Virus record (IMG/VR): IMGVR_UViG_3300027867_000004
Length of the DNA stretch: 20,000 bases
Origin: an uncultured virus (IMG/VR IMGVR_UViG_3300027867_000004)
Taxonomy: Duplodnaviria > Heunggongvirae > Uroviricota > Caudoviricetes
Reading direction: 5' to 3' (one strand)
Position 1 is the stretch's first letter. Each line of letters begins with the position of its first letter. Below, piece by piece: positions 6,631 through 13,391 of the stretch. Both the position numbers and the translations under genes were made by a program. A model generated the notes under the pieces. It worked only from the letters and a program-made list of their open reading frames with translations, was not told where the DNA came from and made no database searches.

Positions 6631-6931
6631 CAATACAATGCATTGCGCTTACTGTAAACGTAAGCTATACGGGAAAGGAACTATTGAGCATTTTTACCCA
6701 TTAGTAATGGGTGGTCCTAACAGGGTCTGGAACCGCATCATTGTTTGTAAAAGGTGCAATCATACTAAGGGCGGACATATGCCAGAGGTTTTTGTTCAGA
6801 TATTGGAAAAGAAACTTTTACGTGCTCAGGCAGCTAGTGATTATGCTGAGGACCTCCGGGATATGATAAAAAGTATCCAGAGTCTGATCCAGGAGAAACA
6901 AGATTATTTTAAAATAAAAGAGTTATTATGA
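6614..6931 (+). CDS. HNH endonuclease (Zn-binding CxxC…HNH type)
   Basis: CAYC…TIEHFYPLVMGGPNRVWNRIIVCKRCNHTKG. Confidence 0.88.
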   Translation: MKQIRNNTMHCAYCKRKLYGKGTIEHFYPLVMGGPNRVWNRIIVCKRCNHTKGGHMPEVFVQILEKKLLRAQAASDYAEDLRDMIKSIQSLIQEKQDYFKIKELL

Positions 6932-7263
6932 AAAATTTCAAAGATGTACTTAAAAAATTAAAAATCTCTCAGGAAGATTTTGATAAGGCTAATAGTGGCC
7001 TTTCCGACGATGAGGTTGCTTACAGGCAGTTAAAACTAATTGCCAAAGCACTTAATGGTGACTGGGTAGCAGATTTTTCTGATGGTAATCAGAGAAAGTA
7101 TGAACCATATTTTTACTATAGCGGTTCTGCTTTTGTGTTCAACTGCTACGACAGCTGGCTCCAGTTTACGGACGTTGGCTCGCGGCTTTGCTATAAAGAT
7201 GCTGCTACAGCTGAATTAGCTGGTAAAAACTTCATTGACATTTATAATAAATTTTTAAAATAA
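6928..7263 (+). CDS. Putative DGR target protein, paralogue 1
   Basis: 111 aa; shares LNxxW…KYxPYF…SAFVF-variable-VGSRLC…AGKxFIDIYNK with the next two genes; contains VR1. Confidence 0.8.
   Translation: MKNFKDVLKKLKISQEDFDKANSGLSDDEVAYRQLKLIAKALNGDWVADFSDGNQRKYEPYFYYSGSAFVFNCYDSWLQFTDVGSRLCYKDAATAELAGKNFIDIYNKFLK
7120..7197 (+). repeat. DGR-like variable region VR1
   Basis: agc ggt tct gct ttt gtg ttc aac tgc tac gac agc tgg ctc cag ttt acg gac gtt ggc tcg cgg ctt tgc tat aaa. Confidence 0.8.
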
Positions 7264-7703
7264 TGAAAATCCCTGTAGAAATTAATGGTAAGACGGTTAC
7301 TATCGAGCTTACTGAAGATCAGGTTGCTTTAGTTAAAAAGCACACTGGAAAGATTACGGACCGTATCAAAACTTTCCAGGATGTGCTGGAATATATTGGT
7401 CCTAAAAGAGCAAAGCAGTTTGATGACTCCTGTGAAAATTGCTCTGATCATAATATAGCGGACAAGCAGATAGAACTGATTTGCGAGGTTTTAAATGAAG
7501 GTTGGGTTGCTGATCCGTTCAATACCAGTCAAATTAAGTACTATCCGTATTTCCAGGTTAGCAGTTCTGCTTTTGTGTTCTACTACTACTACAGCTGGTG
7601 CCAGTTTACGGACGTTAGCTCGCGGCTTTGCTTTAAAAATTCTGATCTGGCTATTTATGCTGGTAAACAATTCATAGACATTTACAACAAACTATTATCA
7701 TGA
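7263..7703 (+). CDS. Putative DGR target protein, paralogue 2
   Basis: 146 aa; contains VR2 (FVFYYYYSWCQFTDVSSRLC). Confidence 0.8.
   Translation: MKIPVEINGKTVTIELTEDQVALVKKHTGKITDRIKTFQDVLEYIGPKRAKQFDDSCENCSDHNIADKQIELICEVLNEGWVADPFNTSQIKYYPYFQVSSSAFVFYYYYSWCQFTDVSSRLCFKNSDLAIYAGKQFIDIYNKLLS
7560..7637 (+). repeat. DGR-like variable region VR2
   Basis: agc agt tct gct ttt gtg ttc tac tac tac tac agc tgg tgc cag ttt acg gac gtt agc tcg cgg ctt tgc ttt aaa. Confidence 0.8.
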
Positions 7704-8116
7704 AACTTCCAATCCAGGTAAACGGTAAAACCGTAGAAATTGAACTCACCAGTGATCAGATCGATCTGGTGAAGAAAGCTAGTCAGAAAATTACTGACCA
7801 GATTAAAACTGAACAGGATGTTTACCAGGCAGCAGGCCTTACTAAATCTGCTTGGGAAAAGATGCACGTTTTTGATCAGATTGCTTTAATCTGTAACATT
7901 TTAAATGAGGGTTGGAAAGCTGACTGGAGTGATACCAGTCAATATAAATACGAACCTTACTTTAAATGGAACGGTTCTGCTTTTGTGTTCGACGACTTCC
8001 TCTGCTGGAGCCAGTCTGCGAGCGTTGGCTCGCGGCTTTGCTTTAAAAATAGTGAACTGGCCACTTATGCAGGAAAGACTTTCATCCATCTATATAATAA
8101 ATTATTGAGTTTGTAA
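7700..8116 (+). CDS. Putative DGR target protein, paralogue 3
   Basis: 138 aa; contains VR3 (FVFDDFLCWSQSASVGSRLC); N-terminus paralogous to paralogue 2. Confidence 0.8.
   Translation: MKLPIQVNGKTVEIELTSDQIDLVKKASQKITDQIKTEQDVYQAAGLTKSAWEKMHVFDQIALICNILNEGWKADWSDTSQYKYEPYFKWNGSAFVFDDFLCWSQSASVGSRLCFKNSELATYAGKTFIHLYNKLLSL
7970..8047 (+). repeat. DGR-like variable region VR3
   Basis: aac ggt tct gct ttt gtg ttc gac gac ttc ctc tgc tgg agc cag tct gcg agc gtt ggc tcg cgg ctt tgc ttt aaa. Confidence 0.8.
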
Positions 8117-8129
8117 TTTCACCGGCGCA

Positions 8130-8597
8130 ATGGGTAAGAAAAAAGGTAAGCAGCATCTTGAATCAAAAACCAAGCTGTTTGAACGCTGGGCATCAATGCA
8201 TTCCAGGTGTAAGCCAAACTGGCACAGGCATGAATCTTATTTTGATAAGGGTGTTACTGTTTGCCCTGAATGGAGCTCTTTTGTAGAGTTTAAAAAATGG
8301 GCTTTATCAAATGGCTTTGATCCGTCATTACAGCTTGACCGAAGGGATAATAACAAAGGTTATTCGCCTGATAATTGTAGGTGGATAACCCGTGGTGAGA
8401 ATAACCTAAACCGATCCAATACACTGTTTGTAGATTACGAAGGTGAAAGAATAGCATTAGCTTTATTGAGTCAGAAACTAGGATGGAACAAAAATACCTA
8501 TAATTTAGTCAGGTATAGAATTTCGCGCGGATGGCCCTTAGAGAATGCTTTGAACACTAAAGTTAGTTTTAAGGGTCAAAAGCCTGTTATTGTGTAA
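8130..8597 (+). CDS. Free-standing HNH-type phage (homing) endonuclease
   Basis: WASMHSRC…GVTVCPEW…LDRRDNNKGYSPDNCRWIT…N..N; same family as 11599-12222. Confidence 0.8.
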   Translation: MGKKKGKQHLESKTKLFERWASMHSRCKPNWHRHESYFDKGVTVCPEWSSFVEFKKWALSNGFDPSLQLDRRDNNKGYSPDNCRWITRGENNLNRSNTLFVDYEGERIALALLSQKLGWNKNTYNLVRYRISRGWPLENALNTKVSFKGQKPVIV

Positions 8598-10223: not shown

Positions 10224-11608
10224 AATATTCGCCTCATCAATATCAGGTCCGGGGTACGGCCCATATTCTCGACAATGATGTCCAGGATACACGCTCCAGA
10301 GGATGCTTCTTTACTGTAGGAACAGGTAAGTCAGTGATGTCATTGACGGCTATTGTAGAGTTGCTCTCGAACATGGAGATAAACAAACCGCTCATTATCG
10401 GGCCGTCTAGGGTTGTCTCGCACACGTGGCCAAAAGAAATTAAAAAATGGGATCATACTAATTATCTGACCATTTCTGTCATTCAGCACACTTCGAATCG
10501 AGCGTCAGAACAGCAGCGCATAAAAGCTTTAAATACTTCTGCAGATATTTATGCGGTGAGCAGGGACAACATTGCATGGCTTGTGCGTTATTGTGCCAAG
10601 ACGTTTAAACGTTGGCCGTTTGATCTGCTGATTATAGATGAATTAAGCAATTATCGTAACCCGTCAACCCAACGTTTTAAAGCTATTAGAAAAATTTTAC
10701 CTTATTGCCGGCAGGTGATAGGTCTTACAGGAACTCCAGCTCCAAGCCAATTACTAGGACTATGGAGTCAGGTTTTTTTACTTGATAAAGGGAAACGCCT
10801 TGGGACTACATACGGGGCTTACAAGGATAAGTACTTTATGCCAGGTGCACGTTCAGGGCATATCGTGTACAGTTACATTTTAAAGAAAGGCGCTGAGCAG
10901 GAAATATATGATGCCATAAAGGACATCTGTATGTCCATGTCCGTTGAGGATTACTTATCGTTACCTGAACGAACCGATATTTATGAGGAAATTGAATTAG
11001 AAGATTTTGACAGGTATTTAGAATTTAAGAAAACAGAAGTTTTAAAATTTGCTGACGGACAAGAATTAACCCCTGTCAACGCTGCAGGACTTTATAATTT
11101 GCTTTTACAGTACTCTAATGGAGCTATCTACCGACACAGGGAAGATGGAAGCAGGTATTATGAAGTGATAAATGGTAGCAAGCTCGACGCTATTTGCTCT
11201 GATGTAGAAGAATTGCAGGGTGAGCCCGTACTAATCGTTTTTCAGTTCATCTCAGATTATGAGCGCCTTCAAAAAGCTATTCCGCATTTACGAAAAATTT
11301 CTACTGATCAGGACATTGATGACTGGAATAATAAAAAAATCTCTGTAGCATGTGCACAGATCAATTCTATAGCTTACGGCATCAATATGCAAGATGGTGG
11401 TCATCATCTTTTTTGGTACTCCCTGCCATGGGATTTAGAGCTATACATTCAGTTCCTGGGCCGTTTGCACAGGCAGGGGCAGCTTAAACATGTGATCAAT
11501 AAGCATTATGTAATTAAGGGGGGGATTGAGGAATTGATCCGGGAACGATTGGCTGGCAAATATAATACGCAACAGAAATTAATGGAGGCACTTAAACGTT
11601 ATTTATAA
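10220..11608 (+). CDS. SNF2-like phage helicase
   Basis: VGTGKS Walker A, IIDELS, LTGTP, GINMQ and QFLGRLHRQGQ (motif VI). Confidence 0.92.
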   Translation: MKYSPHQYQVRGTAHILDNDVQDTRSRGCFFTVGTGKSVMSLTAIVELLSNMEINKPLIIGPSRVVSHTWPKEIKKWDHTNYLTISVIQHTSNRASEQQRIKALNTSADIYAVSRDNIAWLVRYCAKTFKRWPFDLLIIDELSNYRNPSTQRFKAIRKILPYCRQVIGLTGTPAPSQLLGLWSQVFLLDKGKRLGTTYGAYKDKYFMPGARSGHIVYSYILKKGAEQEIYDAIKDICMSMSVEDYLSLPERTDIYEEIELEDFDRYLEFKKTEVLKFADGQELTPVNAAGLYNLLLQYSNGAIYRHREDGSRYYEVINGSKLDAICSDVEELQGEPVLIVFQFISDYERLQKAIPHLRKISTDQDIDDWNNKKISVACAQINSIAYGINMQDGGHHLFWYSLPWDLELYIQFLGRLHRQGQLKHVINKHYVIKGGIEELIRERLAGKYNTQQKLMEALKRYL

Positions 11609-12222
11609 TACCTTCTTATCCTTTTACTGGATATTAAATCTGTGTAATCCATATGGGGGTATTTAGTTATTCTGTAGCGTATAATTTCTCTATGCAGGCC
11701 AGATATTTCAGCGATTTGGGAAAGTGTTAATTTGCCATTAGGTGTATTAATAAAAACATTTCTTGCGGTATTTCTGCTTTGTTCCTTACGGGTAGACCAT
11801 TTACAATTTTCAGGAGTATAGTTACCGTTACTATCTATTCTATCAATAGTTAATTCAGGAGAATAAGTTGAAAACATATCTTCTTTAAAATTTAGATAAC
11901 TTTCCCATCTTTCACATAGAGAAATTCCGCGACCGCCGTACCGATCATAATGAGCAGCGGTTGGATTATTGCATCTAAGTTTCATACCTGACCAAATTTT
12001 ATAAAATCTGGTTTTATATTCACCGTGTATTTTTCTACAATTTAGAAATAAACAGCCACAACTTTTTGTTCTTCCCGATGAAATACTTACCCCTTTTATT
12101 GTAAATTCTTTTCCACAATAGCAGCTACACAGCCAATGAGATTCTTTTCCGTTTCGTGATTCAACTTCATAAAGTACGACAACGCCATTAAAAACTTTTC
12201 CTTTTAAATCTAACTTTTTCAT
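11599..12222 (-). CDS. Free-standing HNH-type homing endonuclease (207 aa from the preferred start MKKLDLKGKVF)
   Basis: WLCSCYCG…TKSCGC, IWSGMKLRC, YGGRGI and TIDRIDSNGNYTPENCKW. The ATG at 12222 is preferred to 12255, which lies inside a structured leader. Confidence 0.85.
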   Translation of the reverse strand: MKKLDLKGKVFNGVVVLYEVESRNGKESHWLCSCYCGKEFTIKGVSISSGRTKSCGCLFLNCRKIHGEYKTRFYKIWSGMKLRCNNPTAAHYDRYGGRGISLCERWESYLNFKEDMFSTYSPELTIDRIDSNGNYTPENCKWSTRKEQSRNTARNVFINTPNGKLTLSQIAEISGLHREIIRYRITKYPHMDYTDLISSKRIRRYYK

Positions 12223-12326
12223 AAAACAAAGAACCCCGATCAAAATCAACGCCATCTCACTAACGTATCATCCAAACGAGGTCTTTTTATGTTTTAAGTT
12301 CTGTTAAGTGAGACGAGAACAATAAT

Positions 12327-12334
12327 CAAATATA
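12327..12334 (-). promoter_or_regulatory. Bacteroidota-type -7 promoter box for the HNH gene
   Basis: TATATTTG on the minus strand (TAnnTTTG), immediately after the stop of the pol fragment. Confidence 0.5.
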
Positions 12335-13243
12335 CTATTTTTTGTAATATTTTCCAACAAATCCGTCGGCTCGCACTCCCCAGGTTTTTGCCCACAGAGG
12401 TACGTCCAGCATGAGTTCTTTAATCCTTTCAAACGATACGCTGCCTTTAGGCACCTCAGCCACTATTTCGTCATGAACCGAAAGCACAATAGCATATCCG
12501 GCCTTCTCAATGTTAATTATTGCATGCATCAATAGATCCCGGCAAGTGGCCTGAACAAAGTTCTCCACCCATTTGCCCGAGTAACTTTTGATAGGCTCCC
12601 ATTTCTTGCTGGTCTGGTTCTGGCCCCAATAGCAAATGCTTTCACGTATGGTCGGCCTTGATCCGTCATCTTTCAACCCCAAGCGCTTCAGGTGCCAGTA
12701 GTACTCTTCCATGTTGTGCTTTTTTGCCTCGCCCACTTCTACGTGCTCTATTCTGGTGGTGTATTCCAGCTTTTCCTCATCAAATGTTTTAACAGGAATA
12801 GATGCCACATAAAACTTTCTAAAGTGTGGTTTTTGATAAACCAAGCAGCGCCCCGAGGGCAATTTCATCAATAAGTGCCCGTTTTTCATACCGAACATGA
12901 TTCCGTGTGCGACCGGCGTACTTTGTCCCGTTTTTAAAGTATTTTTTGCTGCGGCATCCGTTTCCCACCACAGTTTTACTATATTCGGATTCGCTTCCCG
13001 CCATGTTTTTATAAGTCCGGGTATCTCTTTTGAAGGAATGCGTTTGGCAGGATCTTCAATGGTGGCATTATTACGTTCCATTGCGCCGACTCCACCTGAA
13101 TATCCGCAGAGAAGTTCCGCTATTTTAGATTTTTGACGCTGGTCTTTTGTAATCTTATCAATAGGTGTGTGGAACATGATCGATCCGGAGGCTTTATAGA
13201 TGTCACCGCCCGTTCTGAAAAACTCAATCCGCCAGTGTTCATC
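12335..13243 (-). pseudogene. 5'-truncated second copy of the family-A DNA polymerase C-terminus
   Basis: Begins DEHWRIEFFRTGGDIYKASGSIMFH (GEQWRIDFFKTGGDIYKASGSVMFH in the full gene). Has motif B RQKSKIAELLCGY and motif C SVHDE but lacks the exonuclease and motif A. In-frame TGA just upstream (13256-13258). Confidence 0.88.
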
Positions 13244-13244
13244 C

Positions 13245-13391
13245 CGGATCGACCGTCAGGGAAAAATCAAACCAACTATTGTAAAGTACTTCGTGGCCAA
13301 GAATAGTATTGAACAGGTGGTAATTGAGCGATTGGCAGGGAAGTACGATACGCAGGAAAAACTTATGTTGGCGCTCAAAAGGTATTTATAA
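13245..13391 (+). pseudogene. 5'-truncated second copy of the SNF2 helicase C-terminus
   Basis: RIDRQGKIKPTIVKYFVAKNSIEQVVIERLAGKYDTQEKLMLALKRYL* aligns with RLHRQGQLKHVINKHYVIKGGIEELIRERLAGKYNTQQKLMEALKRYL*. Confidence 0.88.

Follow-up and report, generated by a model that had tools for sequence, protein, structure and literature searches.

The question raised by this locus is how three small tandem phage genes came to share a segment patterned as though written by a diversity-generating retroelement (DGR), and whether the phage still holds the means of rewriting it. DGRs are usually read as beneficial and active. The window, by which we mean the whole 20,000-nt stretch analysed here, is 20 kb of a contig of about 71.7 kb, and about 52 kb of that contig lies outside the searched DNA. 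It covers a phage replication region encoding a primase, NUDIX, HNH and VRR-NUC proteins, methylases, an SNF2 helicase and DNA polymerase A. The best primase matches are phages of Bacteroidota. Of 35 cellular records with relatives, 33 bear Bacteroidota names; judged by these matches, the window is from a Bacteroidota phage. Elsewhere in the window, the helicase is followed (11599-13391) by an HNH gene, the C-terminal part of a DNA polymerase and a duplicate of the helicase 3' end (71-74% to the intact copies), an arrangement that looks like the mosaic joint of two related phages. Upstream of the primase (2632-2977) there are 10-nt direct and inverted repeats of origin- or operator-like appearance, and a stand-alone ArdC N-terminal domain (anti-restriction family, PF08401) is encoded at 1171-1608.

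The original prediction described, in the three genes (g1-g3; Table 1), 78-nt segments aligning without gaps across 26 codons, with 17 of 78 columns variable, every one in the first or second position of its codon, and 13 of the 17 holding an A in one copy or more. Re-alignment bore out each of these statements, and the four synonymous differences quoted from outside the repeats are all present. The tract free of third-position change runs slightly beyond the 26 codons first described, to 28 (7120-7203). Third-position variation occurs in 0 of 26 codons inside the repeats compared with 36 of 44 flanking codons (Fisher P 1.6e-12), and degenerate codons for the same residue differ synonymously in 0 of 12 cases inside the repeats versus 17 of 20 outside. 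As in DGR targets, the repeats sit in the 3' part of intact ORFs, with variation at codon positions 1-2, and are followed by about 20 codons. The GC-rich constant block at the 3' end of each repeat differs from the 3' end of the template repeat (TR) of related phages at two TR adenines, and may act as the IMH. A GC-rich hairpin with a GRNA loop is a requirement of the BPP-1-type target site (PMC3240598, in part; this mark denotes sources cited from a portion of their text). None was predicted after the candidate IMH when 111 nt of DNA were folded from each 3' block of the window repeats, which gave weak, non-shared stems only; no RT-bearing sisters were folded as a control.

Table 1. Positions of the genes, repeats and junction in the window, and of the DGR core in the sister phage L001.
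Sequence	Feature	Position	Strand	Basis
Window	Target gene g1, 111 aa, core domain alone	6928..7263	+	phrog_11581 (unknown function); model pLDDT 91
Window	Target gene g2, 146 aa	7263..7703	+	74% identity to first target of DGR-complete phage L001
Window	Target gene g3, 138 aa	7700..8116	+	75% identity to second target of L001
Window	Variable repeat 1 (g1 residues 65-90)	7120..7197	+	7 mismatches to 39-nt L050 TR part, all at template A
Window	Variable repeat 2	7560..7637	+	6 mismatches to L050 TR part, all at A
Window	Variable repeat 3	7970..8047	+	9 mismatches to L050 TR part, all at A
Window	GC-rich constant 3' block of repeat, candidate IMH	7178..7197, 7618-7637, 8028-8047	+	Sequence; encodes SRLC motif
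Window	Spacer preceding TR in sister phages; junction ending L001 homology	8117..8129	+	blastn block and junction view
Window	Putative HNH-family endonuclease gene, 155 aa, in TR-RT slot	8130..8597	+	phrog_3377, E 2.4e-40
L001	TR	about 10864-10940		AAC-rich non-coding repeat
L001	RT	11033-11995		PF00078; GxxxSQ and YxDD motifs

The source of these segments can be seen in sister phages. In L001, a complete phage of 55.9 kb, two orthologous targets are followed by an AAC-rich non-coding TR and then a reverse transcriptase (RT). The second variable repeat (VR) of L001 differs from its own TR at 11 A sites and at no other site over 77 nt, and the first has a one-codon deletion relative to the template. 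The L001 TR carries A at 13 of the 17 variable columns of the window (P 6.6e-6; 1.4e-4 counting codon positions 1-2 only). A 1-kb contig, L050, ends 40 nt into a TR that is closer to the window repeats than that of L001, and all mismatches of the three repeats against this partial TR fall at template adenines (22/22), as is seen in DGR targets. Together the two TRs place an A opposite 15 of the 17 variable columns, the remaining two lying at the repeat edges. The A-rich template sought in relatives is thus present beside the targets in both L001 and L050, and the sequence predicted for it agrees by eye with the beginning of the actual L050 TR at 40 of 42 overlapping positions, both misses lying just 5' of the repeat. 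A looser repeat-pattern search of viral contigs matched only the contig of L001 and L050, and a strict one gave no match.

Sequence comparison therefore confirms that the three genes are targets of a DGR, and shows that a single TR lineage has written over the same 26 codons of each, with changes only at template adenines. Ordinary gene conversion of tandem paralogues, or strong protein constraint, acting without a DGR is extremely improbable, and the TRs and RT of the sister phages refute it: such paralogues are able to convert one another, and one gut pair (L062, L180) has identical repeats in both genes, but conversion does not predict changes confined to the adenines of a sister-phage template, and constraint predicts synonymous change, the opposite of what is seen inside the repeats. 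The proposal that one template diversifies all three genes stands in the past tense, that one DGR template wrote all three segments, because the sister loci hold template and RT; its present tense is not supported, as the window has no TR, RT or avd and an HNH gene lies at the TR start.

The wider family shows what the locus would normally contain. Our set of relatives comprises 151 loci and is redundant (54 lineages at 70%). An RT lies within 1.5 kb of a target in 91 of these loci, of which 81 have two targets, six have three and four have one; 52 have no RT although at least 1.5 kb is in view, and eight end too early. Among the first 46 loci, 22 of the 25 bearing an RT have TR-VR pairs that follow the A rule, and in L009 three targets share a single template, from which they depart at 15, 12 and 14 positions, every one an A. 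The normal layout would then be target-target(-target)-TR-RT, with g1-g3 as small, non-structural targets of an Avd-less DGR. In 78 of the 88 RT loci with enough DNA in view, a conserved gene of 99-133 aa lies directly 3' of the RT (e.g. L144:12043-12342, L065:11452-11853 and L146:10701-11021); it is absent from L001. It has no Pfam or NCBIfam match, and one Atlas cluster at 0.92 weakly links it to the phi29 SSB family (PF17427, on 44% of members). We regard it as a candidate accessory gene of these Avd-less DGRs. Members of one subfamily (L022-L031, L035, L038) have longer, non-tandem targets about 2.5 kb apart, no local RT, and repeats that vary between genomes, and are candidates for service by a remote template. 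At another locus (L124:9890-11560) neither an RT nor a template stub is in view; its targets are four in tandem, and three of these are recent duplicates.

This layout resembles architecture A1 of Wu 2018 (PMC5758913, in part) in lacking avd, in its TR-RT core order, in having several targets and in codon-size indels beside AAC runs, which are seen in L001 and L050. It differs in that the core is absent from the window, and the gene after the RT is shorter than the length given for CH1 (160-169 aa; PMC5758913, in part). The Bordetella phage BPP-1 system (mtd-avd-TR-brt) shares A-to-N mutagenesis from an AAC-rich template and a GC-rich constant 3' block; here, unlike there, the targets are not tail fibres, there is no avd or predicted GRNA-loop hairpin, and some 20 codons follow the repeat. 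The closest catalogued counterparts are the 'Phage_other' targets of cluster PC_00007 in Roux 2021, which are likewise small adjacent targets that neighbour an RT and whose repeat falls about 0.65-0.8 of the way along the gene (PMC8144416, in part). PC_00007 pairs beside an RT are listed for the data sets of L005 and L008 with matching repeat positions, and two of six data-set numbers were found among the rows listed (same source, in part). The g1-g3 family appears to be this uncharacterised cluster, by a circumstantial match made through the data set, gene order and repeat position of L005 and L008. The window differs from PC_00007 phages in having neither TR nor RT in the slot. Roux 2021 gives no function or fold for the cluster in the parts consulted (PMC8144416), and our literature search, beyond whose reach most subscription papers lay, found no paper characterising this target family.

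The targets belong to a large family, of 4,546 clusters at 50% identity. In a PHROG search g1-g3 match only phrog_11581; no Pfam, NCBIfam or PADLOC family was found for the targets, and 150 family members gave only scattered weak Pfam matches. No relative of g2 was found among annotated phages, no hydrophobic segment in g1, g2 or g3, and no solved structural relative by sequence (best E 0.062). The model of g1 (150 sequences) predicts three helices, a beta-hairpin (57-65, 68-77) and two helices, with the repeat covering the second strand, the loop and the SRLC motif, an arrangement that we take to differ from that of a C-type lectin. Foldseek against the PDB gave no match at E 0.001 for either model. 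A VIA fold search gave none at Z 5 among 48,161 chains (best Z 4.1, rmsd 3.9, 66 aligned; and Z 3.6, rmsd 5.3, 57 aligned), and these negatives establish neither a different nor a new fold. The CLec and Ig families are not among the matches, an absence that does not exclude membership, and the viral structure matches and ESM Atlas clusters are all uncharacterised.

Modelling of g2 with g3 gave a complex score of 0.61 versus 0.01 for the best control, a mark reached by 116 of 157 solved pairs and 2 of 215 mismatched pairs. Runs agreed in at least 68% of contacts, with partner pLDDT of at least 83. The predicted contacts set the C-terminus of one chain on the central helix of the other and resemble swapped within-chain contacts of homologous chains. 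This lends modest support to the targets forming some dimer, hetero- or homo-. Natural two-domain target fusions exist, the first and last genes of the arrays fall into mostly separate groups (9 and 12 changes vs about 28 when shuffled), and g2/g3 are a lineage-specific pair common to the window and L001. The targets may be cytoplasmic binders that pair up, each presenting a hairpin and a loop that are hypervariable, and their ligand may be a host protein that itself changes, for instance a defence factor; this is a guess made because of size and context only, and we hold it tentatively.

That the targets instead belong to the virion or bind receptors, as most phage DGR targets do, is quite improbable. 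Tail proteins make up most viral DGR targets, and Roux 2021 allows that unannotated clusters may be unknown structural proteins (PMC8144416, in part). Against this, g1-g3 encode only 111-146 aa and have genes for primase, NUDIX, methylase, helicase and polymerase as their neighbours, the targets of relatives lie among recombination and replication genes, and just 1.6% of PC_00007 is predicted structural, the cluster being called non-structural or unknown (PMC8144416, in part). A comparable non-structural case is the second DGR target of Quimbyvirus, a Bacteroidota phage, which lies among methylases and nucleases and has been proposed to act in phage-host conflict (Benler 2021; PMC8008677, in part). 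That target differs in being described as a C-type lectin, single and distal to the RT of the same genome, and it is by description only that it is set apart from g1-g3. A Bacteroides survey also predicts lectin folds for its DGR targets (10.1101/2024.11.15.621889, in part).

With the targets established as those of a DGR, there remains the question of where its core has gone. A DGR RT and an Avd had been expected nearby. Neither they nor a TR were found in the 20,000-nt window, sensitive blastn and tblastx found no remnant there of TR, spacer or RT, and no avd lies between targets, TR and RT in the sister cassettes inspected. The blastn block that aligns W7259-8128 with L001 9997-10864 (77.6%) ends at the first bases of the TR, and the window HNH gene begins 13 nt past the g3 stop, where the sister TR begins. 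Alignment thus shows that the TR-RT module is absent from its slot in the window phage, with an HNH-family gene starting at the first bases of the TR.

Besides phrog_3377, the product of this gene matches other HNH PHROGs, as expected of an HNH-type nuclease domain, and has a weak PADLOC homing-endonuclease match (E 0.0025) and no Pfam match. HNH enzymes carry a catalytic His in their motif. The window HNH has D-R at that position, no such His is evident in its subfamily, and the product is a putative nuclease judged from sequence. It is one of three HNH genes within the 20-kb window. A role for the HNH gene as a working part of the DGR was considered and rejected, since slot HNH and TR-RT are mutually exclusive in every locus seen.

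Replacement of the core recurs across the family. Counting as a clear loss any case with a template stub or an RT-bearing sister gives nine: the window, L002/L003, L014/L032, the L062 group, the L081 group, L140, L146, L149 and L152. L034, which is ambiguous, and RT-less lineages with neither stub nor RT-bearing sister were left out. An HNH gene lies directly in the slot in the first four of these, 366 nt further on in L152, and in none of the other four; over all 17 RT-less lineages the figure is 4 of 17. Stubs of the TR persist in L003, the L062 group and L152. The complete 94-kb record of L003 gave no RT, and broadening the HNH alignment brought in no further viral loci.

In a group of gut phages, a 572-nt HNH cassette stands in place of 1,453 nt, which reach from a template stub as far as the stop codon of the gene that follows the RT. 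Three of the 20 cassettes lack 119 nt. The cassette hardly varies, although it occurs on many different flanks. With L107 left out, diversity is 0.0011 for the HNH cassette (n=20) versus 0.0046 for TR-RT (n=13), with flanks up to 8% apart. The HNH cassette needs 8 changes on the flanking-gene tree, at least 4 of them forced, and a non-HNH 'type II' replacement needs 5 on the same tree and is polyphyletic. Because the latter is scattered in this way, ordinary recombination must move slot alleles too. All VR alleles are distinct in the RT-bearing gut genomes (14/14), and there are 12 distinct alleles among the 20 HNH genomes, as would be expected if diversification stops and alleles move by recombination. 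In two RT-less genomes (L062 and L180) both targets carry identical repeats, which suggests conversion between repeats after template loss. A separate observation concerns L157, a 136-kb record of L073, in which an RT match holds three in-frame TAG codons; this is a recoded or broken gene, apparently unrelated to the target slot.

There is no TR or RT in the window, and homology to L001 stops where the HNH gene begins; therefore the three repeats are probably frozen. On this reading, which we think likely, the window phage has no TR-RT of its own and its repeats are the last products of one, renewed only by recombination, or by co-infection, with RT-bearing sisters. It is unlikely that they are still being diversified, by a TR-RT elsewhere on the phage genome or in trans from a co-infecting sister or prophage. 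Several points favour continued diversification. The three repeats show no synonymous decay, the 12 alleles of the HNH-type gut genomes nearly all obey the A rule (359 A vs 14 other mismatches in 39 repeats), and most of the contig lies beyond the searched window. Quimbyvirus has a distal second target (PMC8008677, in part), and of five RT-less gut records two hold some RT elsewhere, not compared with these repeats, none being found in the other three. Other points run against it. At 80% identity the assembled contigs of one sequencing run, possibly the source run, gave no second match to the repeats, only a single piece of the window's own contig, which is weak evidence; they hold no variants at the repeats either, and assembled contigs show variation poorly. 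No contig of 71,790 bp appears among the 120 best relatives of the sister RT, which is also weak. Repeat alleles are shared among RT-less genomes and never among RT-bearing ones, and in the portion of Wu 2018 that bears on this, targets more than 100 kb away occur only near Lineage 4 (PMC5758913).

The HNH in the slot may be a free-standing homing endonuclease that cuts and replaces the TR-RT allele and is expressed from the target operon, a reading that we give rather less than even weight. By intronless homing as in T4 (PMC2988022, PMC2330249, both in part), the enzyme would cut the TR-RT allele of a sister phage in a mixed infection, and repair of the break would copy the HNH gene into the place of TR-RT. 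As with the T4 seg and mob genes, which are endonuclease cassettes lodged within a host operon and carried by some sister phages and not by others, the slot HNH is present or absent at one fixed site among sister genomes. The seg and mob genes sit between conserved genes, whereas the window HNH replaces a 1.5-kb retroelement core, and T4-type enzymes can cut far from their insertion site (same sources, in part).

An alternative, which we judge close to evenly balanced, disputes the homing step only: loss of the DGR came first or was favoured (less mutational load), and HNH genes, common passengers in phages, then settled in a slot that is transcribed and dispensable, ordinary recombination spreading them. 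Deletion of the RT without an HNH gene is indeed common (the L081 type, L140, L146, L149), fragmented or deleted DGR RTs have been reported in crAss-like phages (PMC11054128, in part), the type II allele is polyphyletic as well, and the window phage is rich in HNH genes. The passenger account fares worse with the identity of the genes in the slot. They belong to two unrelated families, and close relatives, many of them near-copies, are faithful to it: relatives of the window HNH lie behind targets in 2/2 matches at 58% vs 0/6 at 39-44%, and those of the L069 HNH in 25/25 at 79% identity or above vs 0/22 under 50%. The window HNH is 58% identical over 144 aa to the same-slot gene of the unrelated phage L003, which has little in common with the window phage besides targets and HNH, and whose repeats come from a different template. 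In the other family, of NUMOD4 type, L069 and L032 are 57% identical, and both have RT-bearing sisters whose flanks match theirs at about 96%. Chance occupancy was assessed by a binomial: P(>=4 of 10) is 0.001 at an assumed HNH rate of 5% and 0.013 at 10%, and over 17 lineages the values are 0.009 and 0.083. The observed baseline is five HNH ORFs in 671 kb of 39 RT-bearing lineages, and one right after the RT in 1 of 39, from profiles built on few HNH families that undercount other HNH genes. For the homing reading, the low diversity of the gut cassette on varied flanks is indirect evidence, since it concerns another HNH family than the window's and its control was partly positive.

Taken as a whole, we consider it likely, by slightly more than for its frozen repeats taken singly, that g1-g3 are targets of an Avd-less DGR whose TR-RT is absent from its slot, with an HNH gene at the TR start, probably frozen repeats, an HNH that may be homing and targets that may be cytoplasmic binders. 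A broader version is doubtful: that homing endonucleases of at least two families have specialised on DGR cores, cutting and replacing TR-RT and so switching off hypermutation in co-infecting sisters, which would leave a standing mutator/non-mutator polymorphism, and that the targets are a large family of cytoplasmic binders with a non-lectin, non-Ig scaffold, pairing two hypervariable hairpins in the manner of antibodies. The DGR itself is known biology, here represented by targets of a catalogued, uncharacterised family without their engine. What is new is the recurrent, slot-faithful replacement by endonuclease genes, for which our literature search, with most subscription papers outside its reach, found no paper on HNH or endonuclease replacement of a DGR core, and the unplaced fold; both are testable and neither is proven.

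If true, recurrent replacement of the core by an endonuclease would set a selfish gene directly against a domesticated retroelement, and some of the variable repeats that stand orphaned in phage genomes would be accounted for. Gut phages that are near-identical yet carry one allele or the other form a natural pair in which homing, and what hypermutation is worth in fitness, could both be tested. At 111 residues, a scaffold able to tolerate such variation is also of engineering interest. The target family is one of few abundant non-structural targets of phage DGRs, and to find its ligand would be to learn what phages hypermutate within the cell.
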